Source of the DNA: Clostridiaceae bacterium
Lineage (GTDB): Bacteria > Bacillota > Clostridia > Christensenellales > CAG-138
Direction: 5' to 3'
Assembly (NCBI GenBank): GCA_039683525.1
Contig: JBDKRF010000016.1
Span: forward strand, 1-32,815
Length of the DNA stretch: 32,815 bases
Position 1 is the stretch's first letter. The number at the start of each line of letters is the position of its first letter. Made by a program: the position numbers and the translations under genes. This document shows positions 2,439-29,566 of this stretch, in pieces. The notes beneath the pieces are model-generated. The model was given only the letters and a program-made list of their open reading frames with translations. It made no database searches and was not told where the DNA came from.

Positions 2439-3407
2439 TCAGCCTTTGAACTTGTCCTTCAGATATCCATACCCCTGCGTATCCAGCTCGTCAAACGGCA
2501 CAAAGCGCAAGGAAGTGCCGTTGATGCAGTATCGAATGCCATTGGGGGACTCCGCGTCTCCTTCAAACAGGTGACCCAAATGCGAGTCACCCGCGCGGGA
2601 GCGAACCTCCACGCGGCGCATGCAATGGCTGCTGTCCGTGCGCTCGACTACGACGGAAGGCTCGACCGGCTTGGTGAACGAAGGCCAGCCGCAGGAGGAA
2701 TGGTACATGTCGTCCGAGGTGAACAGCGGTTCACCTGTGACGACGTCCACATACAGCCCGCGCGTTTTGCTGCCGTAAAACTCACTGGTAAACGGGCTCT
2801 CCGTCGCGCTCTGCTGGGTCACGGCGAACTGCTCTGGCGTGAGGGAGGCGCGAATCTGTGATTCATCCGGCTTGCGATAGCGTCCCGCGTCGATGGTGCC
2901 CTTGGAAAGGCGCGCAATCTCTGCAAACGGAATATGGCAGTAGCCGTTGGGGTTCTTATCCAGATAGTCCTGATGATATTCCTCCGCGGGAAAGAAGTTG
3001 ACGAGCGGGCCAATCTCCACCGAAAAGCGAGGCGTACGCGCGCGTTCGATGGCGGCGACATGCTCCACGACCGCCTGCGACTCCGCGTCGGCATAATAGA
3101 TGCCCGCCTGATACTGCGTGCCGGTGTCGTGCCCCTGACGATTGACCGCTGTGGGGTCGACGACCTCGAAATAGGCAAACAGCAGCTGATCGAGGCTCAC
3201 ACGATTGGGGTCATAGGTGACCTTGACCGTCTCGCGAAATCCTGTTTTGCCGGTGCATACGGTTTTATAATCTGCATCCCGCTCGCCGGTTCCATTGGCA
3301 TAGCCGCTTTCGGCGTCCAGCACGCCGGGGATGGACTGCATGAGTTTCTCCATGCCCCAGAAGCACCCGCCCGCGAGATAGATGACGCGTTTCTCATTCT
3401 GTTCCAT
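2439..3407 (-). CDS. msrAB: bifunctional peptide-methionine sulfoxide reductase MsrA/MsrB
   Basis: 322-aa ORF with the N-terminal MsrA motif GGCFWG and the C-terminal MsrB motif GIRYCINGTSLRF. GGAGA lies upstream of the ATG. Confidence 0.93.
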   Translation of the reverse strand: MEQNEKRVIYLAGGCFWGMEKLMQSIPGVLDAESGYANGTGERDADYKTVCTGKTGFRETVKVTYDPNRVSLDQLLFAYFEVVDPTAVNRQGHDTGTQYQAGIYYADAESQAVVEHVAAIERARTPRFSVEIGPLVNFFPAEEYHQDYLDKNPNGYCHIPFAEIARLSKGTIDAGRYRKPDESQIRASLTPEQFAVTQQSATESPFTSEFYGSKTRGLYVDVVTGEPLFTSDDMYHSSCGWPSFTKPVEPSVVVERTDSSHCMRRVEVRSRAGDSHLGHLFEGDAESPNGIRYCINGTSLRFVPFDELDTQGYGYLKDKFKG

Positions 3408-7717: not shown

Positions 7718-10114
7718 TTATTCGATCCCGATCACGTCGTCGTCCAGCACGACCGCGACGAGCATATTGCCCTTGCCCGCGCGGGGCTCGATGCGCACCT
7801 CTGCCGTGTGGATCGCGGTTTTTGCGCCATGCCGTTGCACGAGGGTAACGGTCTTGGGCTCGGAGAGGACCACAACCGCAGCGACGCAGGTGCCGTTGGA
7901 ACCGTTCTTCTTGAGGTCGAATGTCTTGAGACCCTTTCCGTTTCTGCCCTGCAGGTCGTAGTCAAACATCGGCGAACGCTTGCCGAATCCCTTGTCGGTG
8001 ATGGTCAAAACCTCCGCCTCGTCCGGCACGAGGGCTGCATAGAGTACCTCGTCGCCCTTTTCGAGCTTGATACACTTCACGCCACCGGAGACGCGACCCA
8101 TCGCGGGAATCGTATCCGCAGCAAAGCGGATGCTCATGCCGAGCTTCGTGACCATGAGGATGGATCTGGGCTCGTATTTCTCGATGAATAGCACGCGGTC
8201 TTTGTCCCGGAGCGCGACCGCAGCCGTACGCTTGACGCGGACGCGATATTCGGCAGCCGATGTGCGCTTGATGTTGCCATCGCGCAGGTAGAAGAGATAG
8301 TCGCCTTCCTCATCATCGGAGTAAAGCGCGATGATCTTCTCGTTTTTCTCAAACGGCAGGAGCGAGGCGAGGTTTGCTGCTCTCGTCGTCGCGCGGGTCT
8401 CCGGAAGCTCCTCTACCGCGAGGGACAAGAGCGCACCCTGATCCGTAAATAGCCGGATGCGCTGGTTGGAGCGGGTTTCGAGCACGAACAGAGGCTTATC
8501 CTCCGAAATCGCCGCGAGTGAGAACACCTTCGTCGGCATGCGGCGCACCTTCAGCCCTTCGCAGATGCAGACGGTGACATCCTCGACCACGGTGAAATCC
8601 TCCGCTTCGTCGATTGGCGTTTCGTCGCAGGCGACAAACGTCGTTCTGCGGGAGACGGCGAGCTGCTCGCGAATCTCGACAAGTTCCTTTTTAATCAAAG
8701 CGAGCAGCTTCTTCTCGCTGGCGAGGATGCTGCGGAGCTCTTCGATCAAACGCACCACCTCGGCGTATTCGCGCTTGATGGTGACGAGTTCCATGTTGGT
8801 CAGGCGCTGCAAACGCAGATCGAGAATCGCCTGCGCCTGCACTTCGGAGAGGGCGAACGTCTTCATCAGGCCTTCGCGCGCTTCCTTGGGCGATTTGCTC
8901 GCGCGGATCAATGCAATAACCGCGTCGAGATTGTCCACCGCGATCATGAGACCTGCTAAGATGTGCTCACGCCTAAGCGCCGCGTCCAGCTCAAACTGTG
9001 TGCGGCGGGTGACCACATCCCGCTGATGGCGAATGTAGTGCGCGATGATCTGCTTGAGGTTCAACTGCTGGGGCTTGCCGCCCGCGATGGCGACCATGTT
9101 GACGCCAAACGTCATCTGCAGATCGGAATACTTGAAGAGATATTGCAGAATGCGCTCCGGGTCTCCATCCTTTTTGATCTCGATGACGGCGCGCATGCCT
9201 GTGCGGTCGCTTTCGTCGCGAATATCCGCAATGCCGGAGAACATCGCCTTTTTTTCCTGACTGACGGCGAGAATTTTCTCGAGCATGTTCGCTTTGTTGA
9301 CCTGAAAGGGCAGCTCGGTGATGACGATAAAGGTCTTGCCGTTTTTCTGCTCTTCAAAATGGGTCTTCGCGCGCATATAGATCTTGCCGCGTCCGGTGCG
9401 GTAGGCTTGCTCGACCTCGGAGGATTCGAGGATGAATCCTCCGGTGGGGAAGTCCGGCGCGGGGATGATGTGCATGAGTTCTTCGAGTGTGACGCGGGGG
9501 TTGTCCATCACCGCGATGACGGCGTTGATCGCCTCCACGGGATTATGCGGGGGAATGTTGGTGGCAAGACCCACTGCGATACCGCTGGCACCGTTGACCA
9601 GCAGGTTTGGAAAGCGCCCCGGCAATAAATCCGGCTCCTTGAGCGTATCGTCAAAGTTAAACGAGAAACTGACGGTGTCTTTCTCAATGTCGCGCAGAAG
9701 TTGCATGGCGGCTTCCGTCATGCGTGCCTCGGTATAGCGCATCGCAGCTGCGCTGTCGCCATCCACACTGCCGAAATTGCCGTGACCATCTACAAGCTGA
9801 ACGCACATGTTGTACGGCTGCGCCATGCGCACCATCGCGTCGTAGACGGAGGTGTCGCCGTGCGGATGGTATTTACCCAGACAATCGCCGACGATACGCG
9901 CGCTCTTGCGGTGCGGTTTGTCGGGGGTGAGGCTCAGCTCCAGCATGGTGTAGAGGATACGCCGTTGCACGGGCTTGAGTCCGTCCTCCACGCGCGGGAG
10001 CGCGCGCTCGAGAATGACGTGCTCGGCATACGGAATCATGGACTGGTGCATTACCTCGTCCATGTTTCGCTGGATGATCTTCTCCAGCTTGAGTTGTACG
10101 GGTTCTTTCGGCAT
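7718..10114 (-). CDS. parC: type IIA topoisomerase subunit A (GyrA/ParC family; ParC-like, no GyrA box seen)
   Basis: 798-aa ORF with [12 protein letters not shown] and the catalytic-Tyr motif [10 protein letters not shown]. Where GyrA carries Q(R/K)RGG(K/R)G, the first C-terminal blade reads [30 protein letters not shown]. The gyrase versus topo IV assignment is an inference. Confidence 0.85.
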
Positions 10115-10223
10115 ATCAAAAATTCCTTTATCGTCTATCGTCTCTCGAAACGTGCGTTTTTGTTACAGAATCGTAAGATTGCACCATAACTTACGCGCTC
10201 GGTTTTCATCTCCGGGCAGAGAT

Positions 10224-12179
10224 TTAGTCTTTCAGCTTCTCAAACATCTCGCTGTTGTTTTTGTTAAAGTCTGCGTTTTCGAAGATGTATTCTTTTCTCG
10301 ATTGCACTTTATCGCCCATGAGTACGGTTACGAGGTGCTCGACGTCCGCCGCGTCCTCTATATTCACGCGGATCAGCGCGCGCCCTTCGGGGTTCATCGT
10401 CGTTTCCCAGAGCTGCTCCGGGTTCATTTCACCAAGGCCTTTGTAGCGCTGAATCGTGTAGCCTTTGCCGACCGATTTTGTCGCGGCGCGGAGCTCTTCG
10501 TCGTCATAGCAATAGAGGCGCTTGCTATCCTTTTGCACCTTGTAGAGCGGCGAAAGCCCGATATATACGTGCCCTTCGGTGATGAGTTCCTTCATATAAC
10601 GGTAGAAGAAGGTCAACAGGATCGCGCGGATATGCGCGCCGTCCTGATCCGCGTCCGACAGGATGATGATCTTGTCGTAATTCAACGCGGAGATATCGAA
10701 GTCCTCACCGATGCCGGTGCCGACCGCGGTGATGATCGAGCGGAATTCTTCGTTTTGCAGCACCTGGTCGATGCGCTTTTTCTCGACGTTCAGGGGCTTA
10801 CCGCGCAGCGGCAGAATCGCCTGAAACTTCCGGTCGCGTCCCTGCTTGGCGGAACCGCCCGCGCTGTCTCCCTCGACGATGAATAGTTCGTTTCTGCTGT
10901 AGTCTCTGCCGGAGCAGCTACTGAGCTTGCCCACCAGCGGCGCGTTTTCGAGCTTATTCTTCTCGCGCGCGGTGGCCTTCGCTTTGCGCGCGGCTTCGCG
11001 CACCTTTGCGGCCTTGACCGCTTTTTCCGCGATGATGGTCGCGACTTCGCCGTGCTTGAGATCCTCTAAGTACGGCGTGAGTTGCTCGGTGACGACGCTC
11101 TCCACCGCGGGGCGCGCCTCCGTGTTGCCGAGCTTGGTCTTGGTCTGCCCCTCAAACTGGATCGTACGCATTTTGAGCGAGAGCACGGCGGTGATTCCCT
11201 CACGGAAGTCCTCGCCGGTGAGCGGCGCATCCTTGTCCTTGAGGTAGCCCATCTTGCGGCAATAGTCGTTAAGCACCTTTGTGAGCGCGGCCTTGAGACC
11301 CGTCTCGTGCGTGCCGCCCTCGGTGGTGGGGATGTTGTTGACATAGGAGAAGATGTTGTCCGCGTATCCGTCGTTGTGCTGGAGCGCGACTTCGACGATG
11401 ATGCCGCCAGAGGAACCGGAAAAGTGGATCGGCGGCTCGTAGAGCGGCGTCTTGTCGCCGTTGAGATAGCTCACAAAATCGCTTAAGCCACCGTTAAACT
11501 GATACTCGGTCTTCTTCTGATGCCCGATGCGTTCATCCAAAAGCGTCATTTTGGTGCCGCGGTTGAGGTAAGACAGCTCACGGATGCGCTTTACGATACT
11601 GTCATAGCTCATCTCCACGGTCTCAAACACTCTCGCGTCGGGCATGAACGTCACGCTCGTGCCCTGACGGCGCGTGCGGCCAATTTCTTCCAGGGGAGCG
11701 ACCGCTTTGCCGGAGATGATCTTGCCGGTCGCGTCCTCTTCGCTGGTGAAGCGCATTTTATAAAGCCTGCCGTCGGTCGCAACCTCGACCTCGACCCATT
11801 CGGACAGTGCGTTGACCACCGATGCGCCGACGCCGTGGAGCCCGCCGGAATAGCCGTAGGAATCGTTGCCGAATTTGCCGCCCGCGTGCAGCTGGGTAAA
11901 GACGACCTCCACGCCGGAGACGCCCATCTTTTCGTGAATCTGCACGGGAATGCCGCGGCCGTTGTCCACGACCGTGACGGAGTTATCCTTATGGATCGTC
12001 ACCGCGATCTCGTTGGCGTAGCCGTTTGCAGCCTCGTCGATCGAGTTATCGATGATTTCCCAGAGAAGGTGGTGGAGACCACGCTGACCCGTCGAGCCGA
12101 TGTACATGCCCGGGCGCATGCGAACGGCGTCCAATCCTTCCATGATTTTGATTTTGTCTACTGTATAATCCGATGCCAT
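10224..12179 (-). CDS. parE: type IIA topoisomerase subunit B (GyrB/ParE family; ParE-like by pairing)
   Basis: The start is set at ATG 12179, 5 nt after AGGAG (MASDYTVDKIKIMEGLDAVRMRPGMYIGST). Motifs present: GHKL EIIDNSIDEA and GLHGVG, QTKTKLGN, and TOPRIM EGDSAGGSAKQGRDRKFQAILPLRGKPLNVEK with SDADQDGAHI. Confidence 0.88.
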   Translation of the reverse strand: MASDYTVDKIKIMEGLDAVRMRPGMYIGSTGQRGLHHLLWEIIDNSIDEAANGYANEIAVTIHKDNSVTVVDNGRGIPVQIHEKMGVSGVEVVFTQLHAGGKFGNDSYGYSGGLHGVGASVVNALSEWVEVEVATDGRLYKMRFTSEEDATGKIISGKAVAPLEEIGRTRRQGTSVTFMPDARVFETVEMSYDSIVKRIRELSYLNRGTKMTLLDERIGHQKKTEYQFNGGLSDFVSYLNGDKTPLYEPPIHFSGSSGGIIVEVALQHNDGYADNIFSYVNNIPTTEGGTHETGLKAALTKVLNDYCRKMGYLKDKDAPLTGEDFREGITAVLSLKMRTIQFEGQTKTKLGNTEARPAVESVVTEQLTPYLEDLKHGEVATIIAEKAVKAAKVREAARKAKATAREKNKLENAPLVGKLSSCSGRDYSRNELFIVEGDSAGGSAKQGRDRKFQAILPLRGKPLNVEKKRIDQVLQNEEFRSIITAVGTGIGEDFDISALNYDKIIILSDADQDGAHIRAILLTFFYRYMKELITEGHVYIGLSPLYKVQKDSKRLYCYDDEELRAATKSVGKGYTIQRYKGLGEMNPEQLWETTMNPEGRALIRVNIEDAADVEHLVTVLMGDKVQSRKEYIFENADFNKNNSEMFEKLKD

Positions 12180-12262
12180 AAAGACTCCTGTTCTCAAGCC
12201 GAAATAGCGATAATAATTTTGATTTTATCTACTGAGTCATCCGATGCCGTAAAGACTCCTGT
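12145..12262 (-). repeat. 47-nt direct duplication of the parE-like ribosome-binding site and first ~12 codons
   Basis: 12145..12191 and 12216..12262 match at 42 of 47 positions, offset 71 bp. The upstream copy keeps AGGAG but has ACG in place of ATG, and an in-frame TGA replaces TAT. Confidence 0.85.
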
Positions 12263-12511
12263 CCCGAACAAAAAGAATGTTCGAAAGCAAATCGGCGGGG
12301 AACCGCCGAAAAAAACAAAGAACTCCTGCAAAAACGAAGAAATCCGCTGTTTCTGCGGGTTTTGCAGGTGGTTTGAATGTGCCTTACACCATATCTGGCA
12401 CGAAGATAAACACAGTATACCATAGTTTGTGTCGCACCGGAACCCATCCGGGACCCTGCCGACAGGCTCAAACATGCAAACGAACGTTTATTTTCAAAAA
12501 ATTCAAAAAAA

Positions 12512-12564
12512 GTGGGCAAAAAATACATGAAAGTGGTGACAAATGGGGGATTGTGGTGTATACT
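12512..12564 (+). promoter_or_regulatory. dcw promoter overlapped by MraZ-box-like GTGG(G/T) direct repeats
   Basis: -35 GTGACA (12536..12541), a 17-nt spacer, then -10 TATACT (12559..12564). GTGGG is at 12512, GTGGT at 12533, TGGGG at 12544 and GTGGT at 12553; the last three have roughly 10-bp phasing. Confidence 0.55.
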
Positions 12565-12629
12565 CATCGTAAGTCTGGGGGAAGTATATCCTTATTAAAT
12601 AGTATTTACTTGCCGGAGGAGGGAAACGC

Positions 12630-13076
12630 GTGCTGATCGGTTCTTTCGAACATATGCTGGATGCTAAAGGCCGCGTATTTATCCCGGCGAAGTGGCGGGA
12701 AAGCGTGGGAGATACGCTTGTCATCACCCTTGGCTTATTGGAGTCCACGAGTGCCGCATGCCTCACCGGCAGATCGCTGGAAGAGTGGGAACGCTTTTCG
12801 CAGAAGCTCTCCGCGCTTGCGGTGAGCGACACGCAGGGTCAGGCGATCCGCAGAAAGCTCTATTCCATGGCGGCGGCCTGCGAAATCGACAAGCAGGGTC
12901 GCATCCTCATCCCCGCGCAGCTGCGCGAACTCACGGGCTTAAACAAGGACGCAACGCTGATTGGCGTTGGCGAACGTGTAGAGATTTGGAATCCGGAAGC
13001 GCTGGCTGCCTATAACGCAGCAAGCGAGGAGAACTATAGCGAGGCGCTGGCACATCTGGCGACACTCGGCATATGA
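12630..13076 (+). CDS. mraZ: division/cell wall cluster transcriptional regulator MraZ
   Basis: 148 aa with a GTG start after GGAGGAGGG. Both DxxxR-type half-domain motifs are present (LDAKGRVFIP and IDKQGRILIP). Confidence 0.93.
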   Translation: MLIGSFEHMLDAKGRVFIPAKWRESVGDTLVITLGLLESTSAACLTGRSLEEWERFSQKLSALAVSDTQGQAIRRKLYSMAAACEIDKQGRILIPAQLRELTGLNKDATLIGVGERVEIWNPEALAAYNAASEENYSEALAHLATLGI

Positions 13077-14014
13077 GCGAGCAATTTACACACATTCCGG
13101 TGCTGCTGAACGAAACGCTGGCGCTGCTTGCGCCGGAGCGCGGCGGCATCTTTGTAGACGGAACACTCGGTGGCGGCGGCCATGCCGAGGCGGTATTATC
13201 TATTCTGCCGCAGACCGGCAGACTCATTGGAATTGACAGGGACTGGGAAGCCGTGCACGCGGCGGGGGACCGGCTATCTTCGTTTGGAAGCCGATTTACC
13301 GCGTTGCACGGCAACTTTTTTGATATGAAGGCGTTGCTGACCGCGGCGGGTATCGCGGAGGTCAACGGAATCCTGCTCGATCTCGGCGTATCGTCTCACC
13401 AGCTGGATACGCAGGAGCGCGGATTTTCCTATAAGACGGATGCACCGCTGGACATGCGCATGGACCAGGGCGCACGCCTTTCTGCAAAGGACATCATCAA
13501 CACTTACTCCGAAGCGGAGCTCACGCGCATCTTTTTTGCTTACGGAGAAGAGCGTTTCAGCCGTAGAATTGCGGACAAGATTTGTCACGCACGTGAACAA
13601 TATCCCATCGAGACCACCCTTCAGCTGGCGCAGATCGTGCGCGACGCCATCCCGGGCAAGTACCGCAATGAGCCGCAACACCCCGCGCGCAGGACGTTTC
13701 AGGCGCTAAGAATCGAGGTAAACGGCGAGTTGAGCGGGCTGGACCAGGCGGTGGAGCAGGCCTGCGATCTGTTGCAAAAAGGCGGAAGACTGTGTATAAT
13801 TACATTTCATTCACTGGAGGATCGTATTGTCAAGCAGGCATTCCGACGTTTTGAGAACCCCTGCACGTGTCCGCCTTCCGCGCCGATCTGCATCTGCGGT
13901 AAGCAACCGAAGGCGAAGATCCTCACCAAGAAACCGCTGACCGCCTCCGCTGAAGAGGAAGCGCAGAACTCCCGCTCGACCAGTGCAAAACTCCGCTGCA
14001 TCGAAAAGATCTAG
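13073..14014 (+). CDS. rsmH: 16S rRNA (cytosine1402-N4)-methyltransferase RsmH
   Basis: 313 aa with HIPVLLNE, GTLGGGGHA, DLGVSSHQLD..RGFS and ITFHSLEDRIVK. Its start overlaps the mraZ stop in ATGA. Confidence 0.95.
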   Translation: MSEQFTHIPVLLNETLALLAPERGGIFVDGTLGGGGHAEAVLSILPQTGRLIGIDRDWEAVHAAGDRLSSFGSRFTALHGNFFDMKALLTAAGIAEVNGILLDLGVSSHQLDTQERGFSYKTDAPLDMRMDQGARLSAKDIINTYSEAELTRIFFAYGEERFSRRIADKICHAREQYPIETTLQLAQIVRDAIPGKYRNEPQHPARRTFQALRIEVNGELSGLDQAVEQACDLLQKGGRLCIITFHSLEDRIVKQAFRRFENPCTCPPSAPICICGKQPKAKILTKKPLTASAEEEAQNSRSTSAKLRCIEKI

Positions 14015-14065: not shown

Positions 14066-14659
14066 TTGATTGGAAGGGAATTTTCATTGGATATCCGCTT
14101 CGAAGACGATCGCAAAAAAGGTCGTTCACCAACGACCAGACTCTATATGCCAACGAAGGAAGAGCAAGAGGCGTATGAGGCGCGTGCAGCGCGTCCGCAC
14201 AAGGGATCGAGAACCGCCCCGGAGCCCGGTGTTCGCGTCAATAAACCGGAGATGTCTTCGCTCGGGCGCGTCGGCTTGATCATCAGCGGTTTCCTTTTTG
14301 CGGGCATGGTGCTCTTTACGCTCTCCGGCTATGAGCGCATTTCGCGCGCTTATGCGGACATCAACGCGCTCAACAACGAGAGTGACACGACAGACCTGCG
14401 CATCAACGAGCTGGAAGTACAAATCGAGTGCGCGGTGACCATTCAGGATGCGCAGAAGGTTGCGGAAGCATACGGCATGCGCTATCCCGAAAAGAACCAG
14501 TACGTGCGGATCGGAGATCCGCTTCCGTTTGATAATACTACGCCCGCGCCAACCACGATACCGGAAGGCGGGGCGACCACAGCGCCGGAAACGACGCCGG
14601 AACCGACCTCTACTTCAGGCACTTCGGGCGGGGGGGAACAGCCGCCCGCGGGCGGTTGA
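14066..14659 (+). CDS. ftsL: FtsL-like cell-division protein (single TM plus coiled coil, P/T-rich tail)
   Basis: It holds the expected position between rsmH and the PBP. One TM helix (VGLIISGFLFAGMVLFTL) is followed by INALNNESDTTDLRINELEVQIE...AEAYGMRYP. The start is uncertain: TTG 14066, TTG 14087 (8 nt after GGAAGGG) or ATG 14147. Confidence 0.65.
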   Translation: MIGREFSLDIRFEDDRKKGRSPTTRLYMPTKEEQEAYEARAARPHKGSRTAPEPGVRVNKPEMSSLGRVGLIISGFLFAGMVLFTLSGYERISRAYADINALNNESDTTDLRINELEVQIECAVTIQDAQKVAEAYGMRYPEKNQYVRIGDPLPFDNTTPAPTTIPEGGATTAPETTPEPTSTSGTSGGGEQPPAGG

Positions 14660-14682: not shown

Positions 14683-16908
14683 ATGGCTAAAACAGCGGCC
14701 CCCGCGCCGAAGATTAAACAAAAACTCGTTCTATTAATGGTATTCGCAGGCTTGCTGATGCTGTTGCTTGCGCTTCGCCTCACACAGGTTATGATTATCC
14801 AGGGACCTGAGTTGAAAGCAAAGGCAGAGGTGCAGTGGACGCGTAGGCAGAATTTAGCTGCCCAGCGCGGCAAGATAGTCGACCGAAACGGCCTGGTTCT
14901 CGCGCAGAGCGGAACGGCCTACCGCGTACTCGCCAACCCGCCCGCGATTGCGGCGGATGATCGTGTTCGCGTTGCCACCGAGGTTTCCGAGGTGCTCGGC
15001 CTCAACTATGATTATGTGATGGAGCGCATCTCACCCGATCCGGAAACCGGCAAACTCAGGTTGCAGGTGCAGCTCAAGCGCCAGGTGGAGAGCTCGGTCA
15101 TCGACCAGCTCGAAGCGTTGCAGCTCGGCAACGGTATCTCTTATACCACGGACATGAAGCGCTACTATCCCTTTGGACAGCTTTTTACGCAGCTGATCGG
15201 GTTTACCGGCATCGAGACGGAAGGGCAGACGGGACTGGAAGCGGAATACAACTCCTACCTCGCGGGTACAGCGGGACGCCTCGTTATCGAAGTCGACCGA
15301 AAGAACAATCCGCTTTCCTATGGTGAGCAGGATTACATCGCGGCGATCGAAGGTTATAATATGACGATCACGGCGGATTCCGTAACCCAGAGCTATCTGG
15401 AAAAGTATCTCCAGCAGTGCTACGAGCTAAACCGTGCAACCAGCGTATCGGGACTCATCATGAACCCAAACACAGGCGAGATATTGGCGGTTGGCTCCTA
15501 TCCATCCTTTGACCTCAACAACCCGCCGCGTGATATGGTAACCGAGCTCATGTCGATGTCCCGTGTGCGCTCTGTGACGGATACTTACGAAGCCGGCTCC
15601 ATGTTTGACGTGATCACCGCAGCGGCTGCGTTGGATTCCGGCTCTACGACGGAGGCCAGCAGCTATAAATGCGAAGGGTTTAAGATCTTCCGACTGGAGC
15701 GCGTGCCCTGCTGGAATACAAAAGGACACGGAAGCGAAACACTCTCTGAAGCACTGAATAACTCCTGCAACCTCGCGATGTCGGATATGGCGCTTGCGAC
15801 CGGAATCAACAAGTTCTACGACTACATCTATAACTTCGGCTTCGGTACGGAGACGAACGTCGGCATCCCTAGTGAAGACACCGGCGAAGTCATCCATCGC
15901 AAATACATTCGCGAAAGCGATTTATCCAAGATCGCGTTTGGCGAAAACATCACCACGACCGGAATTCAAATGGCAAATGCGTTTTGTGCGATCATCAACG
16001 GCGGAACGCTCATGCAGCCGTATGTGGTGGATAACATCACCTCGACGGACGGTACCATCATCGTGAAGAACGAGCCGACCATTCTGCGCAGAGTCAACCG
16101 CGCTAGCACTTCCGCAACCATGCGCTCCCTACTGCAAAAAGTAGCGGAGAAGGGTAACGCCAGCAACTCGCAGGTCATCAACTATCCGGTTGGCGGGTTC
16201 AGCGGGGTTTCGCGCAAGTTTGCGGAGGACGGGGTAACGCCCGATCGCATGCGCGTAGTTGCCTCATACATCGGCTTCTTACCGGTCAATGATCCCCAGC
16301 TTGTCTGCATGCTCATCATAGACGAGCCGCAGGTGCCCTATATGGAAGCGAGCAGCATTGCAGGCTATTGGGCATCCAAGATCCTGACCGATCTCGTGCA
16401 GTATTACGGCATTCTGCCGGATCTGGACACCAAGACGAAGACTTCCACCGTGCCAAACGTGACGGGTATGACGGCAAGAGATGCGGTTTATGCGCTCAAG
16501 CAAGAGGGATTTCAGGCGTACACCGTTCCGAGCGAGGATGCAGCAGGCGTTGTTGCACAATATCCTGCCGGAAATACGGAAGCGCCCTCCGGCTCCATCG
16601 TGATACTCTATACATCCATGACGACGTTTAACGATGACCAGCTCTACAAAGAACAAGTCGTCGTGCCGAACCTCGTCGAACGCCGCAGACAGGATGCATT
16701 TGACACACTCGCGAAACTCGGGTTGGTCCTGAGCTTTGATAAGACCCAATGCACCGGACAGATCGATACCCAGTCCATCGAGGCGGGCACAAAGGTTGAT
16801 CCGGGAACGGTGATCTACGTGACGTTCCCCAAACCTTCTCCTTCGCCTTCGACATCTCCGGACGCGAACGCGACGCCAGCCGCGCCGACACCGCTGCCGG
16901 AAGGATGA
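14683..16908 (+). CDS. class B penicillin-binding protein homologue (FtsI/PBP2B/SpoVD family, two PASTA domains) with degenerate catalytic motifs
   Basis: 741 aa with an N-terminal TM anchor and RGKIVDRNG. The transpeptidase fold aligns well with SpoVD-type sequences, and two PASTA repeats follow (VPNVTGMTARDA..., VPNLVERRRQDA...). The motifs read S306-M-F-D309, S361-C-N and F506-S-G. Confidence 0.9.
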   Translation: MAKTAAPAPKIKQKLVLLMVFAGLLMLLLALRLTQVMIIQGPELKAKAEVQWTRRQNLAAQRGKIVDRNGLVLAQSGTAYRVLANPPAIAADDRVRVATEVSEVLGLNYDYVMERISPDPETGKLRLQVQLKRQVESSVIDQLEALQLGNGISYTTDMKRYYPFGQLFTQLIGFTGIETEGQTGLEAEYNSYLAGTAGRLVIEVDRKNNPLSYGEQDYIAAIEGYNMTITADSVTQSYLEKYLQQCYELNRATSVSGLIMNPNTGEILAVGSYPSFDLNNPPRDMVTELMSMSRVRSVTDTYEAGSMFDVITAAAALDSGSTTEASSYKCEGFKIFRLERVPCWNTKGHGSETLSEALNNSCNLAMSDMALATGINKFYDYIYNFGFGTETNVGIPSEDTGEVIHRKYIRESDLSKIAFGENITTTGIQMANAFCAIINGGTLMQPYVVDNITSTDGTIIVKNEPTILRRVNRASTSATMRSLLQKVAEKGNASNSQVINYPVGGFSGVSRKFAEDGVTPDRMRVVASYIGFLPVNDPQLVCMLIIDEPQVPYMEASSIAGYWASKILTDLVQYYGILPDLDTKTKTSTVPNVTGMTARDAVYALKQEGFQAYTVPSEDAAGVVAQYPAGNTEAPSGSIVILYTSMTTFNDDQLYKEQVVVPNLVERRRQDAFDTLAKLGLVLSFDKTQCTGQIDTQSIEAGTKVDPGTVIYVTFPKPSPSPSTSPDANATPAAPTPLPEG

Positions 16909-17025
16909 CGCGCGGTACAGGGCTATGATGATTGTTCCGCCGGACGGTGTACCCGCACGGTGAATGATATACCGATTTCTATTTTCAAAGGGCGCGGAAG
17001 GTTCCGCGCGACGGGAGGTAACGAC

Positions 17026-18459
17026 ATGCTGCTTTCGGAACTGGCAATGGCATCCGGCCTGCGCTATGAAGGCGAAGATACGGATATCGTCTCCATTGAA
17101 TACGACTCAAGAAAAGTGAAAAAAGGCAGCCTGTTTTGCTGCATCGTGGGTTCGCTGCTCGACGGGCATACGTTTGCCGAGGGTGCGATTCAAAACGGTG
17201 CAACGGCACTGTTGGTTGAGCGGGAGCTTCCGGTTCCCGTGCCGCAGCTCGTGGTCAAAAACGCGCGCAAAGCGATGGCCGAAATGGCTGCCGCGTTCTA
17301 TGGATATCCCCAGCGTGAGATGATGATGTTGGGCGTCACCGGCACGAACGGCAAGACCACCACGACCTATATGGTCAAGGCGATTGCCGAGCAGGCGGGC
17401 AAGAAGGTCGGCGTCATCGGCACAATCCGCAACCTCATCGGCAACGAAAGCATCCACACAGACCGCACCACGCCGGAATCGGTCGATCTCTTCCGCATCC
17501 TGCGCATGATGGCGGATGCGCATGTTGACCTCGTCGTGATGGAGACAAGCTCCCACGCGTTGGAGCAATTCCGCGTTCACGGCATTAAGTTTGATGTAGG
17601 TCTGTTTACCAACCTCACACAAGACCATTTGGATTATCATAAATCGTTTGACAACTATCTTGCCGCGAAGAAGATTCTCTTCCTCAACAGCAAAAAGGCT
17701 GTCGTCAACGTGGACGATCCCTACTCCGCGCGCATCATGGAAGGCTTAACGATTCCGATTCTTACCTTCGGCGTGCGCGACCGCGCGGATATCTCCGCGA
17801 CGGATATCGACATCACGACCGACGGCGTCCGCTTTGATCTGCATACGCCGGAGGGCGAGGTGCTCATGAATCTTGCGATTCCCGGGCTGTTCTCCGTGTT
17901 TAACGCGATGGGTGCCGCCGGTATGGCGCTTGCGGTCGGCATGAAGCTCAGCGCGATCAAAGCCGGACTGGAATCGCTGACCAGTGTCTCCGGCAGGCTG
18001 GAGCCTGTGAAGACAAACAGGGGATTTTCGGTATTTGTCGACTATGCGCATACGCCCGACGCGTTGGAAAACGTGCTCAAGACCGTGCAGCAGTTTGCAA
18101 AAGGCCGCGTCATCTGCGTCTTTGGCTGCGGCGGAGACAGAGACCGCGCCAAGCGCCCCATCATGGGCGAAATCGCGGGCAGGTTCTCCGAGTTTGCGGT
18201 CATCACGAGCGACAATCCGCGTACGGAAGAACCAATGTCAATCATCGAGTCGATCGAAGAGGGAATGAAGCGAAGCGGAACGAAATACACCGTCATCGAG
18301 AACCGCAAAGAGGCGATCCGCTATGCATTAGCCGCCGCGCAAAACGACGACGTGATCATGATCGCGGGCAAAGGCCACGAGAACTATCAGGAGATCAACG
18401 GCACAAAGTATCACTTTGACGACAAAGAGATTGTCGAGGAGCTGCTCGGCGAGCTGTAA
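17026..18459 (+). CDS. murE: UDP-N-acetylmuramoyl-L-alanyl-D-glutamate--2,6-diaminopimelate ligase
   Basis: The start is set at ATG 17026 after GGGAGG. Motifs present: GVTGTNGKTTT, TTPE, ETSSHAL, FTNLTQDHLDYH, VDYAHTPDALE, GCGGDRDRAKRP and the meso-DAP-type DNPR motif (SDNPRTE). Confidence 0.93.
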   Translation: MLLSELAMASGLRYEGEDTDIVSIEYDSRKVKKGSLFCCIVGSLLDGHTFAEGAIQNGATALLVERELPVPVPQLVVKNARKAMAEMAAAFYGYPQREMMMLGVTGTNGKTTTTYMVKAIAEQAGKKVGVIGTIRNLIGNESIHTDRTTPESVDLFRILRMMADAHVDLVVMETSSHALEQFRVHGIKFDVGLFTNLTQDHLDYHKSFDNYLAAKKILFLNSKKAVVNVDDPYSARIMEGLTIPILTFGVRDRADISATDIDITTDGVRFDLHTPEGEVLMNLAIPGLFSVFNAMGAAGMALAVGMKLSAIKAGLESLTSVSGRLEPVKTNRGFSVFVDYAHTPDALENVLKTVQQFAKGRVICVFGCGGDRDRAKRPIMGEIAGRFSEFAVITSDNPRTEEPMSIIESIEEGMKRSGTKYTVIENRKEAIRYALAAAQNDDVIMIAGKGHENYQEINGTKYHFDDKEIVEELLGEL

Positions 18460-18480: not shown

Positions 18481-18596
18481 ACCGCAAGTAACGCTTGAAC
18501 ATACAGGCTGCTTGCGGTATTTGTTTGCCGCGCAGGCGGCAAACAAACATCCCGCCGTTTTGGGGATTGTCCCAAGCGTATTTTCGGGGGTATAAT
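18481..18596 (+). promoter_or_regulatory. murE-mraY spacer: two strong hairpins followed by a promoter-like element abutting the mraY start
   Basis: Hairpin 1 is ACCGCAAG / CTTGCGGT (18481..18518). Hairpin 2 is a 12-bp stem TTTGTTTGCCGC-GCAG-GCGGCAAACAAA (18520..18547). Then come TTGTCC (18567..18572), an 18-nt spacer and TATAAT (18591..18596), 6 nt before ATG 18603. Confidence 0.4.
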
Positions 18597-18602
18597 ACCG
18601 AT

Positions 18603-19640
18603 ATGCTGCAAATACTCATGACCGCGTTGACGGCGTTTGTGATCGTTTGGCTGCTTGGCCCGCTGCTGATTCCCGTGCTGGCGCGGCTGAAACCAACCAG
18701 ACCGGAGCCGGAAGACTCCCCCGAACCACCGCCGCAACCATCCTCAAAAAAAAAGCAGGCGCCGCCGCCGAAACCGCCCGTGCCAACCATGGGCGGTGTG
18801 CTGGTGTTGCTTGCAGCTTCGATTGCGACGCTCATCTTCGGCATGGACGGGATGGAGTTTGCGCTACCCGCGCTGGTCGCGATGCTTGCATTCGGTGTGC
18901 TGGGATTCATCGATGATTTTATTCGCGTACGCGACCCGGACGGAATCGGCCTTCGCGCCAGCGTGATGATCGGTGCTGAGTTGGTCTTTGCCGCGATCAT
19001 TGCGATCTGGGCGTATCGCTCCCCGCTGATTGGCTCCTCTCTGCATCTGCCGATCTCCGGCGGAGAATGGCAGATCGGATTCTGGTATGTGCCGCTGGTG
19101 ATCATGACCGTGATGCTTGAAGCCAACGCCGCGCACCTGAGTGAGGGAATGGATGGGCTTGTTACGAGCGTTAGCACAGTGTATGCGCTGGCGATGATTG
19201 CGATATTTGCAGCGATGGCGTCGACAGCCAATCAGCAGGGCGAACTGCTACAGGGGCATAACCTCGTCGGCAGCGCGATCTTTGCCGCGGCGGTAGGCGG
19301 CGCTGGCGTCGGTTTTTTGCGCTACAACACCTATCCCGCGCGCATCCAACCCGGCTCGAGCGGATCGCTTGCGCTCGGCGGAGCGGTCGCGATGCTGGCC
19401 ATTCTCAGCCGGACTATCATCCTTTTACCGCTCATGAGCGCATGCCTGCTGGTCAGTTTCGCATCCATCCTGCTGCAATCGTTCAGCAAAACGCGCGAAG
19501 GCGGCAAGAAGCTCTTTCGCGCCGTACCGCTGCATCGACACTTTGAGCTAAGAGGGCACCCGGCATCCCAGATTTCAACGATGTATGCCATTCTCACGGC
19601 GGCAATTTGCGCATTCTGTCTGCTGCCATATTTTCGATAA
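18603..19640 (+). CDS. mraY: MraY-family (PNPT superfamily) membrane protein; phospho-MurNAc-pentapeptide translocase homologue with non-canonical conserved residues
   Basis: The start is set at ATG 18603 (MLQILMTALTAF...). PTMGG, GFIDDF, GMDGL and GSLALGG place it in the MraY family, in the canonical slot between murE and murD. Several invariant positions are substituted (see findings). Confidence 0.85.
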   Translation: MLQILMTALTAFVIVWLLGPLLIPVLARLKPTRPEPEDSPEPPPQPSSKKKQAPPPKPPVPTMGGVLVLLAASIATLIFGMDGMEFALPALVAMLAFGVLGFIDDFIRVRDPDGIGLRASVMIGAELVFAAIIAIWAYRSPLIGSSLHLPISGGEWQIGFWYVPLVIMTVMLEANAAHLSEGMDGLVTSVSTVYALAMIAIFAAMASTANQQGELLQGHNLVGSAIFAAAVGGAGVGFLRYNTYPARIQPGSSGSLALGGAVAMLAILSRTIILLPLMSACLLVSFASILLQSFSKTREGGKKLFRAVPLHRHFELRGHPASQISTMYAILTAAICAFCLLPYFR

Positions 19641-19691
19641 CGCATCGCCCGAATGTTCTCGCGGGCTATTTTTTTGGAGGCAATAAACGAA

Positions 19692-21044
19692 ATGGAACAA
19701 CACAAGAAGGCGCTGATCGTCGGCATGGCAAAAAGCGGCGTCGGCGCGGCAAAATTGCTCAAAAGCACCGGCTGGGACGTGGTCATCAACGACAAGAAGA
19801 CCGAGATACCGGGGCTGGCGGAAGCGCTGAGCGGCGTGGACGTCGTCTGGCGGCTTGGCGAAGACCCGCAGGCGCTGTTTGACGGCGTTACGCTCATCGT
19901 GATCAGCCCGATCATCCCCATGACGGTTCCGTTTGTACGCGAGGCGCAGGCACGCGGCATAGAGGTCATCAGCGAGATCGAGCTTGGATATCGCTATAGC
20001 CACGCAGAGTTCGTCTGCATCACCGGAACAAACGGAAAGACCACCTGTACCGCGCTGACCGGAGAGATCTTCAAAAACGGCGGCAGGCACACGTTTGTGC
20101 TCGGCAATATCGGGGTCGCGATCACCGAGCACGCGCTCGATACGCGCGAAGGTGACGTCGTCGTCGCCGAGACCGCGGGTTTGCAGCTCGAGGGAAACGT
20201 ACACTTCCACGCGCGGGCTGCGGGCGTTTGCAACATCACGGAGGACCACCTCGACCACTTCGGCTCGATGGAGAACTACATCGCCGCCAAGTGCAAGATA
20301 TTTGATCATCAGACGGCGGAGGATATTGCTGTATTGAACTACGACGACGCGGTCGTGCGCGACATGGCGCGGCTGACTCCCGCGCGTGTCTATTATTTCT
20401 CGCGCAAGGGCGAGGTACCGCGCGGGCTGTTTTTGCGCGGGTATACGGTCGTCTACCGAGACGAAAACGGCGAATACGACCTCATTCGCGCGGAAGAGAT
20501 CAAGATTCCCGGCGGACACAATCTGGAGAACGCGATGCTGAGCTCGCTGCTTGCGCTCGGCATGGGCATATCCGCCGATGCGGTGCGAGAGACGCTCAGG
20601 AGCTTCCCCGGTGTGGAGCACCGCATTGAGTTTGTGCGCGAGTTTGACGGCGTGCGGTACATCAACGACTCCAAGGGCACCAACCCGGATTCGACCATCA
20701 AGGCGATTCAGGCGATGACCAGACCTACCGTGCTGATCCTGGGCGGTTACGATAAGCACAGCGATTTTCATGAGCTGTTTGAGAACTTCCGCGGCAGCCA
20801 GCTGAAATCCATCGTCGTGCTTGGCGAAACCAAGCAAAAGATTCTCGATACCGCGCGGGACACGGGCTACCTTGGCTACTGCCACGCAACGGGAACGTTT
20901 GAAGACGCGGTCTCCTGCGCGCGCGTACTGGCCGCCTCCGGCGACGCGGTGCTGCTTTCGCCCGCCTGCGCAAGCTGGGATATGTTCGATAACTTCGAGC
21001 AGCGGGGCAGGGTATTCAAGGAGATCGTGAATCGGTTCGCGTAA
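19692..21044 (+). CDS. murD: UDP-N-acetylmuramoylalanine--D-glutamate ligase
   Basis: The start is set at ATG 19692 after GGAGG (MEQHKKALIVGMAKSG). Motifs present: ITGTNGKTT, NITEDHLDHF, AAKCKIF, GGHNLENA, FPGVEHRIEFV..YINDSKGTNPDS and LLSPACASWDMF. Confidence 0.92.
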   Translation: MEQHKKALIVGMAKSGVGAAKLLKSTGWDVVINDKKTEIPGLAEALSGVDVVWRLGEDPQALFDGVTLIVISPIIPMTVPFVREAQARGIEVISEIELGYRYSHAEFVCITGTNGKTTCTALTGEIFKNGGRHTFVLGNIGVAITEHALDTREGDVVVAETAGLQLEGNVHFHARAAGVCNITEDHLDHFGSMENYIAAKCKIFDHQTAEDIAVLNYDDAVVRDMARLTPARVYYFSRKGEVPRGLFLRGYTVVYRDENGEYDLIRAEEIKIPGGHNLENAMLSSLLALGMGISADAVRETLRSFPGVEHRIEFVREFDGVRYINDSKGTNPDSTIKAIQAMTRPTVLILGGYDKHSDFHELFENFRGSQLKSIVVLGETKQKILDTARDTGYLGYCHATGTFEDAVSCARVLAASGDAVLLSPACASWDMFDNFEQRGRVFKEIVNRFA

Positions 21045-21101
21045 TATTGTACCTACTCCCTTAGCAGGGGAGCACCTTGTAAAACAAGAATGAGCAGAAA
21101 T

Positions 21102-21130
21102 AAAAAAACGCCCCGTAGGGCGTTTTTATT
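21102..21130. terminator. bidirectional intrinsic terminator between murD and the convergent hydrolase gene
   Basis: AAAAACGCCC-CGTA-GGGCGTTTTT is flanked by an A-run and a T-run. Confidence 0.85.
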
Positions 21131-21144
21131 TTAGTTTCGCTAAA

Positions 21145-21705
21145 TTACTCGTTCACGATGTCGATGTGGCAGGCTTTCATCGCGGTGAGCGCGGTCTTAT
21201 GCCCTTCGGGCGTTGCGCCAGCGCAGGCTGCGGCGTCTACCGTGATGGTCGATTCGGGATAAAACGCCTTGAGGAGTAGTGCGTTACTGATCACGCAGAT
21301 ATCCGTGCAGAGGCCGACAAGATCGATCTCCTCCGGCTCGACGCCCTCCAGCATCTCATGGATGCGCATGGGCAGGCTCACGCCACCAAAGGTGTCCTTC
21401 GCGATCATGTGCTGCTCGTCCGCCACGTTTTTGTGCATCAGCGCCATCCAGATGGCGGAATTCGGCGCCCAGCCGTTGGTGCCCGCGATGCAGTGCGGAA
21501 CTGGCAGCTTTTGCCCTTCTTTCGTGTTGAGGTAATCCTCGGTGTGCGTATCGAGCGTGTAGAGAATCAGCCCGTCAAAGTCGAGAATGCGCTTCACGAC
21601 GGGCTCGACTACCGCCTGCGCTTCCTTCGAGCCAAGCGAACCGGAGATAAAATCGTTTTGCATGTCTACCACGACGAGGACTTTTTTTGCGATTGTCTGT
21701 TCCAT
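21145..21705 (-). CDS. isochorismatase-family cysteine hydrolase, nicotinamidase (PncA)-like
   Basis: 186 aa with VLVVVDMQNDFISGSLG, LPVPHCIAGTNGW and the catalytic-Cys block VGLCTDICV. Confidence 0.8.
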   Translation of the reverse strand: MEQTIAKKVLVVVDMQNDFISGSLGSKEAQAVVEPVVKRILDFDGLILYTLDTHTEDYLNTKEGQKLPVPHCIAGTNGWAPNSAIWMALMHKNVADEQHMIAKDTFGGVSLPMRIHEMLEGVEPEEIDLVGLCTDICVISNALLLKAFYPESTITVDAAACAGATPEGHKTALTAMKACHIDIVNE

Positions 21706-25862: not shown

Positions 25863-26393
25863 TTATGTCGGGGTTTTCTTCTCAGCCTTGGGAGCGAGAA
25901 TCATGAACAGGCTTCTGCCTTCCATCTTTGGCTCGCGCTCTTTGATCGCGCTGTCGCCAAGCATCTCGTAGAAACGGGTCATGACGTCCATGCCGATCTC
26001 GCCGTGTGTGATCTGGCGGCCGCGGAAGCGGATGGATACCTTGACTTTGTCGCCGTCCGCAAGGAATCTGATGGTCTGCTTGGCTTTGATCTCCATGTCG
26101 CGAACGTCAATGGTTGCGGAAAGGCGCGTTTCTTTGAGCTCGATGATCTTCTGATTCTTTCGCTGTTCCTTCTCGCGCTTACCCATTTCAAAACGGTACT
26201 TGCCGTAATCCATGAGCTTGCAGACGGGCGGAGTGCTGTTGGGTGCGATCTTGACCAGATCCAGTTCACGTTCATCGGCCATCTTTTGCGCCGCGCGGAC
26301 ATCTACGATGCCGAGCTGGTCGCCATTTTCGCCGATTAAGCGGACCTGTGGGTCACGGATCTCTTCATTGATCATCAATTCCGTGATAGCGAT
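25863..26393 (-). CDS. infC: translation initiation factor IF-3, probable non-canonical ATC start
   Basis: INEEIRDPQVRLIGENGDQLGIV... is typical IF-3. GGAGG (26407..26403) lies 9 nt before the in-frame ATC at 26393, but 24 and 27 nt before the TTG 26378 and ATG 26375 used by the track. Confidence 0.9.
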   Translation of the reverse strand: MAITELMINEEIRDPQVRLIGENGDQLGIVDVRAAQKMADERELDLVKIAPNSTPPVCKLMDYGKYRFEMGKREKEQRKNQKIIELKETRLSATIDVRDMEIKAKQTIRFLADGDKVKVSIRFRGRQITHGEIGMDVMTRFYEMLGDSAIKEREPKMEGRSLFMILAPKAEKKTPT

Positions 26394-28904: not shown

Positions 28905-28940
28905 GATTTTCCTGCGGATGATTGTTGCTGGAGGTGAAGT

Positions 28941-29566
28941 ATGAAAGAGATCTTATTGATCGCTTACGGGTTTCTGAGCACGATATTGCCTGCGCTGCTA
29001 TGCTACGGCGCGCTGCACTTGGTTTATCGATCAAAGGGAATCCGCGAGCCGCGGCTTCGTTTGTTGATGATTCTGTATCGGTCTATGTCGCGGGCGTTTT
29101 CTTTTTCACAGGAGCGGGAACGGTGTACGACATACGCCAGTATGGCCTGGACGCGATGGCGACGCAGGCAAACCTGATCCCGTTTTCCGACAAATCGATC
29201 GACGTCGTGGCCTATCTGCTCAACGTGGTCCTGTTTCTGCCGCTTGGCTTTCTGCTGCCGCTGCTTTGGCCGAAACAGGCCAAGCTCTGGAAGATATTGC
29301 TTGCGGGGGTTGCGTTTTCGCTGCTCATTGAACTGAGCCAGCTGCTGAACATCCGCAATTCGGACATCGACGATCTGCTGCTCAATACGCTTGGCGCAGT
29401 GGTCGGGTTTGCGCTGTATCGGGGTTGCGCCGTGTTGACGAAGCGGGAGAAACGCATCGAAACGGGATTTCGCGCGGAGGCGCTGCTCTATTTTCTCGTG
29501 ATGTTCCTGGGCCGCTTCCTGCTGTTTCATGAGCTTGGATTCGCAAAAATCCTGTACGGGTTTTAA
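28941..29566 (+). pseudogene. VanZ-family membrane protein split across two reading frames
   Basis: A strong SD (GGAGGTGAAGT) precedes ATG 28941, and the TM-like N-terminus MKEILLIAYGFLSTILPALLCYGALHLVYRSKG is in one frame. The VanZ core (SVYVAGVFFFTGAG, NLIPF, NVVLFLPLGFLLP, SLLIELSQL..DIDDLLLNTLGAVVG) is in the -1 frame through 29566. The frames switch near 29050..29060. Confidence 0.6.

Follow-up and report, generated by a model that had tools for sequence, protein, structure and literature searches.

Locus and domain architecture

We analysed a 32,815-nt stretch of DNA (the window hereafter; contig JBDKRF010000016.1 of a Clostridiaceae bacterium) that carries a division and cell wall (dcw) gene cluster. 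One gene of this cluster encodes a penicillin-binding protein of class B (bPBP) in which both lysines of the catalytic motifs are replaced. The replacements are shared by a whole clade of orthologues under purifying selection, and the protein has probably been kept as a non-catalytic part of the division machinery, the divisome. The dcw genes of the window are the following.

12630-13076, forward strand: mraZ, the first dcw gene (Pfam MraZ)
13073-14014, forward strand: rsmH/mraW (Pfam Methyltransf_5)
14066..14659, forward strand: open reading frame (ORF) for a small bitopic protein, FtsL-like by position and topology only
14683..16908, forward strand: putative pseudo-class B PBP gene, an intact 741-codon ORF (741 aa)
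16960-18459, forward strand: murE (Pfam)
18495-19640, forward strand: mraY (Pfam)
19653-21044, forward strand: murD, the last gene of the dcw cluster here (Pfam)

The gene order is therefore mraZ, rsmH, ftsL-like, PBP, murE, mraY and murD, and the PBP gene occupies the slot of a divisome bPBP of the FtsI/PBP2B type, after the ftsL-like gene and before murE. The FtsL-like ORF has no Pfam or NCBIfam match; in related loci the same slot holds a gene of 166-205 aa, also without domain matches. Judged by its sequence, the bPBP gene is the predicted orthologue of the PASTA-bearing dcw class B PBP of Clostridia (SpoVD/PBP2B/FtsI type). No gene of the SEDS (shape, elongation, division and sporulation) family, no murG, no ftsQAZ and no second PBP gene was found anywhere in the 32.8-kb window, and a tblastn search for a second, tandem bPBP over all of the more than 80 loci collected found one bPBP per locus only.

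The protein shows the class B PBP architecture, with a transmembrane (TM) anchor, a pedestal, a transpeptidase fold, two PASTA domains and a Pro/Ser/Thr-rich tail. Both the membrane anchor with its pedestal and the penicilloyl-serine transferase fold, by which class B PBPs are recognized, were thus recovered. Domains and motifs are located as follows, all on the forward strand.

14713..14799: N-terminal TM helix, about residues 11-39 in the AlphaFold2 (AF2) model
14857..15315: pedestal (PBP dimerisation) domain, PF03717, residues 59-211, 82.1 bits against a cut-off of 24.4
15454..16386: transpeptidase-fold domain with a degenerate active site, PF00905, residues 258-568, 185.6 bits (E 1.6e-54) against a cut-off of 22.1
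15598..15609: motif 1, S306-M-F-D309 in place of SxxK (Lys to Asp); Ser306 is TCC at 15598-15600 and Asp309 is GAC at 15607-15609
15670..15711: SpoVD-type Cys pair, Cys330 at 15670-15672 and Cys343 at 15709-15711
15763..15771: motif 2, S361-C-N363 (SxN), kept (TCC TGC AAC)
16198..16215: motif 3 region, F506-S-G-V-S-R511 in place of K-T-G-T-(A/S)-(Q/E); FSG is TTC AGC GGG at 16198-16206
16447..16827: two PASTA domains, PF03793, two stretches, 75.9 bits

The first PASTA domain covers residues 589-645, and the second was placed at roughly residues 657-715 from the secondary structure of the AF2 model. The TM helix may contact a SEDS partner. The tail, at 16828-16905 of the window, is rich in Pro, Ser and Thr (PKPSPSPSTSPDANATPAAPTPLPEG), is modelled with very low confidence and varies in length among orthologues.

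Both catalytic lysines are replaced

In the established mechanism of PBPs, the lysines of SxxK and of KTG are both needed for acylation. The window protein retains SxN and lacks SxxK and K(T/S)G, the two motifs of an active DD-transpeptidase that carry these lysines. A sequence-only reading of the window had reported SMFD, FSG, SxN and the Cys pair, and each of these motifs and codon positions was found in ORF 14683..16908 exactly as it had described them. In a phmmer alignment with the Clostridioides difficile SpoVD protein (7rcz, E 6.9e-86), GSMFD pairs with GSTFK and GGFSG with GGKTG, and the SYIGF block begins at residue 528, 20 residues beyond FSG. To avoid circularity, we also built a Hidden Markov Model from 45 relatives with canonical motifs only (the live-only HMM). 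Alignment to this model with hmmalign placed the motifs identically, so that by either method no Lys falls in either motif column. Since both columns contain Lys in 45 of 45 canonical relatives, the replacements can be ascribed neither to alignment noise nor to chance.

A clade of motif-dead orthologues

A search covering 5.8 billion protein clusters retrieved about 80 cluster representatives with 66-100% identity to the window protein. All of them are motif-dead, reading (S/T/D)-x-F-(D/G/S/E) and G-(F/I/V)-(S/T/G)-G-(V/L)-S-R. Below about 66% identity the matches turn canonical (FEPGSIFK, NSCN, GGKTGTAQ). A scan of the GTDB species representatives yielded 36 loci with dead motifs, 34 full-length and 2 truncated, seven of them on complete chromosomes. 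The complete chromosomes of the clade are OW818651.1, OY762962.1, OY762290.1, OY776633.1, OY771363.1, OY764017.1 and OY762278.1. The sources of the dead clade are all metagenome-assembled genomes (MAGs) of uncultured organisms, labelled Christensenellaceae, Christensenella sp., Clostridia or Eubacteriales, which are loose NCBI labels. In a neighbour-joining tree computed from Kimura distances, the dead sequences form a single clade (bootstrap 100/100) nested among sisters with canonical SxxK, SxN and KTG motifs, and the set of protein clusters gave the same topology. Because the dead clade is monophyletic within canonical sisters, the motifs were lost once, in the ancestor of a sizeable lineage. 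The window sequence is therefore no lone outlier, an outcome that would have spoken against the earlier reading.

The replacements follow a pattern. Of the 34 full-length loci, 30 have Asp at position 309, two have Ser, one has Glu and one has Asn, and none has Lys there. The nucleophile position, 306, is S in 21, T in 10 and D in 3. Position 506 is I, V or F in all 34, and position 509, the Thr of KTGT, is V or L in all 34 (Val in 32). S510 and R511 are invariant across 17 clade members. Cys330 is invariant as well, and Cys343 is kept in 29/34 dead-clade members versus 45/45 live relatives. One subclade (L024, L025, L026, L030 and L034) also lacks the Ser nucleophile, replaced by T or D, the SxN motif, which reads SSS or SNS, and the second Cys.

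About 10001-12220 in each of L024, L025, L026, L030 and L034: PBP gene of this subclade

These regularities bear on the idea that the former active site has been rebuilt as a ligand-binding or regulatory site. Such a neofunctionalised pocket, perhaps acting jointly with the PASTA domains, might detect stem peptides that are not cross-linked, lipid II or a partner protein, and might gate FtsW or recruit a cross-linking enzyme. It would overlap with a non-catalytic divisome role but would give the transpeptidase domain an active part of its own. The replacements are conserved rather than random, as the figures for positions 309, 506, 509 and 511 indicate. Moreover, in L025, L026 and L030 an Asp stands at position 306 while position 309 is S or N, which suggests that an acid is retained in the pocket. 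On the other hand, P0038, P0047, L037 and L039 read S..G and have no acid at either position, and the pocket is not uniformly constrained, because SxN, Cys343 and the nucleophile have each been lost in some subclades. We consider a neofunctionalised pocket of this kind rather unlikely.

Erosion of the active site

The losses extend beyond the motifs. There are 116 positions conserved at 90% or more in live relatives, and the dead clade retains 86 of them: 30/33 in the TM anchor and pedestal, 11/11 in the PASTA domains and 44/71 in the transpeptidase domain. The approximately 27 altered positions of the transpeptidase domain flank the three catalytic motifs and include N295A, P304A, S306, K309D, C343, C362/N363 and Q421E, as well as K506 to I/V/F, T507, T509V, S528/F529, G556A, A561G and P562Y. 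The sequence-only reading had called the gene otherwise well-kept. It is indeed full-length and not decaying, but that description understated the change, given this proportion of altered positions and a nucleophile position that varies between S, T and D.

Could the protein still be an enzyme, whether a transpeptidase, a carboxypeptidase or another hydrolase, with Ser306 served, for example, by a different general base? Ser306 and S361-x-N363 are retained in the window protein, and a passage of PMC10211241 describes catalytic residues that have migrated in some pseudoenzymes. Across the clade, though, the nucleophile position varies and a hydrophobic residue replaces the KTG lysine in every member, and for these two reasons residual acyl-enzyme chemistry appears very unlikely. 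The Thr of KTGT has likewise become V or L, SxN is lost in one subclade, and acylation requires the two lysines that are missing. An enzymatic role of any kind is accordingly highly improbable.

Purifying selection and a preserved predicted fold

The ratio of nonsynonymous to synonymous substitution rates (dN/dS) was estimated pairwise within the dead clade. The medians are 0.14 overall, 0.088 for the TM anchor and pedestal (residues 1-257), 0.143 for the transpeptidase domain and about 0.17 for the PASTA domains, values obtained with a crude estimator (Nei-Gojobori, NG86) and with synonymous divergence (dS) near saturation in many pairs. Because of this saturation the closest pairs (dS 0.17-0.75) were re-analysed, and they gave 0.03-0.16 for the transpeptidase domain. 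Purifying selection thus acts strongly on all domains, in line with the sequence-only reading, and the pedestal is the most strongly constrained part.

The domains have not evolved alike. The ratio of transpeptidase dN to pedestal dN is 1.6 in the dead clade versus about 0.9-1.0 in live relatives. When live and dead groups were compared with one and the same outgroup (L035, L036 and L045), transpeptidase identity was 72.8% for live sisters and 58.5% for the dead clade, and pedestal identity 69.9% and 65.3%, respectively. These relative rates imply that the transpeptidase domain underwent a burst of change followed by renewed constraint, the pedestal and anchor being tightly held throughout. 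At the N-terminus (residues 1-40), mean pairwise identity is 0.83 in the dead clade versus 0.63 in live sisters, and K14, L15-F21, G23, L25, L29, R32, L33 and Q35-M37 are invariant in 17 clade members. This pattern of constraint fits a function centred on the pedestal. The persistence of low dN/dS in the transpeptidase and PASTA domains (about 0.03-0.17) is also what a rebuilt pocket would lead one to expect.

Structure prediction with AF2, from an alignment of 67 sequences, gave a mean predicted local distance difference test score (pLDDT) of 83.3 and a predicted template modelling score of 0.73. In blocks of 10 residues, pLDDT reached 90 at motif 1, 89 at SxN and 92 at motif 3. The blocks of the transpeptidase domain lie mostly at 84-97, except for a low-confidence loop around residues 389-402. 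The top Foldseek match was C. difficile SpoVD (7rcz, target TM score 0.85), and matches to SpoVD, Pseudomonas aeruginosa PBP3 and PBP2x had E values of 1e-40 or better. The model thus predicts a protein that is folded and not decaying. Missing catalytic residues, purifying selection and a preserved predicted fold together are the marks of a pseudoenzyme.

The same data bear on whether the unusual motifs stem from an assembly error or from a decaying pseudogene. Beyond the motifs themselves, nothing favours either. The reading frame is intact and the N-terminus conserved, and orthologues from dozens of independent assemblies, the seven complete chromosomes included, share the substitutions, which answers the concern that GAC or TTC might have been misread. 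Shared substitutions, a monophyletic clade, dN/dS of 0.03-0.16 in the closest pairs and a confidently predicted transpeptidase fold refute both, and the chance that one of them applies is practically nil. The data effectively rule out residual catalysis as well as pseudogene decay and errors of assembly.

The FtsW-FtsQ pair and its relocation

The dcw cluster of the window is broken after murD, at 21045-21150, and the genes 3' of murD are unrelated and on the opposite strand (isochorismatase, SpoU methylase, GNAT, MFS transporter). In the outgroup, a SEDS gene follows murD in 32 loci. As an example, the order in L041 is PBP, murE, mraY, murD, SEDS, ftsQ, ftsA and ftsZ. In L036 and L045, the basal live sisters, SEDS and ftsQ have remained within the dcw cluster. 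In contrast, in none of the 34 dead-clade loci did tblastn detect a SEDS gene within 10 kb. The cluster of L027, the closest live sister with enough flanking sequence, is already without SEDS, and the dcw cluster was therefore split before catalysis was lost.

Using the L036 FtsW as a query, we found an 82%-identical orthologue adjoining ftsQ on OY762278, a chromosome of the dead clade. The relocated neighbourhood comprises rubredoxin, a periplasmic binding protein, Hydrolase_4, FtsW, FtsQ, an Fe-dependent repressor and FeoB. FtsW is near-invariant, including the GESDFIF and LPFISAGGSS stretches. MAGs labelled 'Christensenella sp.' contain a heavily sampled FtsW of 398-401 aa in the same relocated ftsW-ftsQ neighbourhood, which is found in related genomes at the following positions.

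10001-12667 of L082: relocated ftsW-ftsQ site
6001-8739 of L092: relocated ftsW-ftsQ site

The relocated 'Christensenella sp.' loci have the same GC content as the window (0.55), and their tetranucleotide correlation with it (r) is 0.96-0.97; the corresponding values are 0.98 for the dcw loci of the crown group and 0.82-0.86 for the basal subclade. There is thus good but indirect evidence that the lineage of the window itself possesses an FtsW-FtsQ pair. The SEDS partner that the sequence-only reading had presupposed is retained, as FtsW adjoining FtsQ, in genomes of the clade.

The position of the SEDS gene also helps to judge whether the protein is a relic of sporulation, that is, a SpoVD orthologue acting only in asymmetric septation or engulfment, with catalysis partly dispensable, and not the vegetative divisome PBP. 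TIGR02214 (SpoVD) is the top NCBIfam match, 7rcz is the best structure match, and the SpoVD-type Cys pair is retained. In Clostridia, the dcw-encoded bPBP and SEDS protein have been proposed to be SpoVD and SpoVE (PMC10693644), and the C. difficile SpoVD S311A mutant still permits asymmetric division (PMC12713402). Nevertheless, the window protein misses the cut-off of the SpoVD equivalog (475.5 versus 688 bits), as does the live sister L027 (609.1 bits). The SpoVD name thus finds no support in NCBIfam. C. difficile cannot synthesise its cortex without catalysis by SpoVD (PMC12713402), so a dead SpoVD would block spore maturation unless replaced. Neither the window nor the 34 clade loci have a SEDS gene within 10 kb that could be an adjacent spoVE, and absence of the SEDS gene from the dcw cluster is a state that Shrestha et al. 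tied to sporulation loss (PMC10693644). Finally, the relocated SEDS gene adjoins ftsQ/divIB, which suggests a role in division. A purely sporulation-specific function therefore seems quite unlikely.

Independent losses in related lineages

Recurrence was examined by an exhaustive HMMER search of 1.84 billion representatives at 50% identity. Of the 149 nearest 50%-identity clusters, 12 full-length ones lack the canonical residues at the positions of Ser, Lys and Lys, as alignment to the live-only HMM confirmed. In the narrow family to which the window protein belongs, three further lineages, each nested among canonical sequences, are motif-dead: P0107 (P..A and NTG), P0113 (S..E and KNG) and P0242 (T..G and KGG). 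P0107 shows the synteny of the window from gyrB and mraZ to murD. P0242 lies within a complete dcw cluster, after which come FtsW, FtsQ and FtsA, and P0257, a more distant motif-dead case, is followed by murE and mraY. The bPBPs located in dcw slots in other lineages, degenerate in different ways and of independent origin, are listed here.

938-3151 of L083: P0242
4770-6956 of L084: P0107
442-2538 of L095: P0257
644-2728 of L094: P0288

At least three further independent inactivations are seen among close relatives. Motif-dead PASTA bPBPs seem to recur among Clostridia, and catalysis by the dcw bPBP seems to have been repeatedly expendable in this branch.

Other features of the window

A divergent pair of type II topoisomerase genes lies just upstream of mraZ (7718-12197, reverse strand), an arrangement that is conserved in the clade, as in L001, and also in L084, a relative whose motifs were lost independently. 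A 119-codon ORF at 12277-12636 (forward strand) directly precedes mraZ; at the same place, L001 (7571-7936) has a gene for 121 aa without Pfam match. Within the dcw cluster, murF is absent between murE and mraY. The MraY ORF contains a proline-rich stretch of about 30 residues (RPEPEDSPEPPPQPSSKKKQAPPPKPPVPT) immediately before the PTMGG motif, and the TTG listed as its start probably lies too far upstream, as orthologues are called at about 344 aa. The remaining genes that could be assigned are listed below.

2439-3407, reverse strand: fused MsrA-MsrB methionine sulfoxide reductase, an ordinary neighbour
7718-10114, reverse strand: GyrA/ParC-like member of the topoisomerase pair
10224-12197, reverse strand: GyrB/ParE-like member of the topoisomerase pair
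25863-26378, reverse strand: IF3-like ORF, assigned from synteny with L001 (IF3, L35, L20)
28922-29566, forward strand: VanZ-like membrane protein, an ordinary neighbour

Discussion

We propose that the window protein is a pseudo-transpeptidase kept as a scaffold or activator for FtsW while other enzymes perform cross-linking, and we regard this as probable. The protein would no longer be acylated and would form no 4-3 cross-links, and it would have been retained because the non-catalytic functions of the divisome bPBP are still needed. Its TM helix and pedestal may bind and allosterically activate the SEDS polymerase FtsW in a divisome of the FtsQ/FtsL type, relaying activation from the FtsQ/FtsL-type subcomplex to FtsW, with the PASTA domains perhaps positioned in the process. 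The folded, inert transpeptidase and PASTA modules would remain as structural or regulatory parts of the complex, and septal strands would receive their cross-links from a PBP of class A, a second one of class B or L,D-transpeptidases. The model draws on laboratory mutants of other species. Bacillus subtilis can divide with a catalytically inactive PBP2b provided that PBP3 is present (Sassine et al. 2017, cited through PMC12713402), and the C. difficile SpoVD S311A protein supports asymmetric division, for which SpoVE is needed (PMC12713402). For both mutants the explanation preferred by the authors is that the SEDS protein is activated allosterically, and they suggest class A PBP or L,D-transpeptidases as alternative cross-linkers (PMC12713402).

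Several observations weigh against this proposal. A scaffold-only role does not obviously explain dN/dS of about 0.1 in the transpeptidase and in both PASTA domains, nor does it explain the conserved replacements (Asp309, hydrophobic 506, Val509, Arg511). The selection estimates themselves carry the near-saturation of dS and the crudeness of NG86 noted above. FtsW was seen directly on the same chromosome only for the basal dead subclade (OY762278), and it is composition and phylogeny, not physical linkage, that tie it to the crown group of the window itself. The physical and functional pairing of the dead bPBP with FtsW is something that we infer, as is the identity of the enzymes that would supply the cross-links.

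Among known systems, the PBP3-backed S309A mutant of B. subtilis PBP2b (PbpB) offers a functional parallel: it is a dcw-encoded PASTA divisome bPBP whose protein is essential and whose transpeptidase activity is dispensable, presumably through allosteric FtsW activation, as outlined in PMC12713402. It differs in that one Ser was changed to Ala by engineering and the rest of the site is intact, whereas the loss described here is natural, ancient and clade-wide and affects both lysines and much of the active site. C. difficile SpoVD (7rcz) is the closest relative of solved structure and shares the domain order and the Cys pair. Yet SpoVD keeps SxxK, SxN and KTG and needs catalysis for the cortex (PMC12713402; PMC10693644), whereas the window protein has neither the lysines nor an adjacent SEDS gene. 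FtsI/PBP3 of the FtsWIQBL core divisome (for example that of P. aeruginosa, 8bh1) has the same fold (Foldseek rank 36, target TM score 0.78) and the same genomic slot after ftsL, and FtsW-FtsQ is conserved in genomes of the dead clade. In contrast to the window protein, FtsI works as an active transpeptidase, is a target of beta-lactams and lacks PASTA domains; for the window protein such a complex is a prediction. The essential role of Staphylococcus aureus PBP1, a PASTA divisome class B PBP, is likewise separable from its transpeptidase activity, although that protein, as it occurs in nature, is competent in catalysis. Departures from the canonical one-to-one match between an active bPBP and a SEDS protein, among them conserved loci whose bPBP has lost its catalytic capacity, have also been catalogued across Bacteria in the form of pseudogenised ftsI loci and of bPBP-like proteins that consist of a pedestal only (PMC12516126). 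Those cases are frameshifted, truncated or devoid of the transpeptidase domain, whereas in the window protein a full-length domain is under purifying selection and only the chemistry appears to have been removed. Searches of the open-access literature yielded engineered catalytic mutants and the pseudogenised and pedestal-only cases just named; no account turned up of a dcw bPBP that is full-length, motif-dead by nature and conserved throughout a lineage.

A bolder possibility, which we hold to be doubtful, is that these organisms, and several other lineages of Clostridia in which the same residues were lost independently, divide with no bPBP acting as a DD-transpeptidase in the divisome. The inert bPBP would activate FtsW, the rebuilt pocket (Asp309, Arg511 and the hydrophobic residue at 506) together with the PASTA domains would sense a ligand or recruit a partner, and all septal cross-links would be made by class A PBP or L,D-transpeptidases. 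If this were true, regulation, not enzymatic activity, would be the ancestral function of divisome bPBPs on which selection can act.

Textbooks treat the class B PBPs of the divisome as essential enzymes, and they are the chief targets of beta-lactams. Point mutants of B. subtilis and C. difficile had hinted that their indispensable task is to switch on a SEDS polymerase, not to cross-link. The clade described here can be regarded as a natural experiment on this question: an old and species-rich lineage has fixed an apparently chemically dead divisome bPBP under strong selection, and relatives have undergone the same loss independently several times. Automated annotation as 'penicillin-binding transpeptidase' or 'SpoVD' mislabels such proteins. 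With this lineage, the non-catalytic function of divisome bPBPs becomes directly testable, through the surfaces that remain constrained, the supplier of the cross-links and a possible intrinsic insensitivity of the divisome to beta-lactams at this node.

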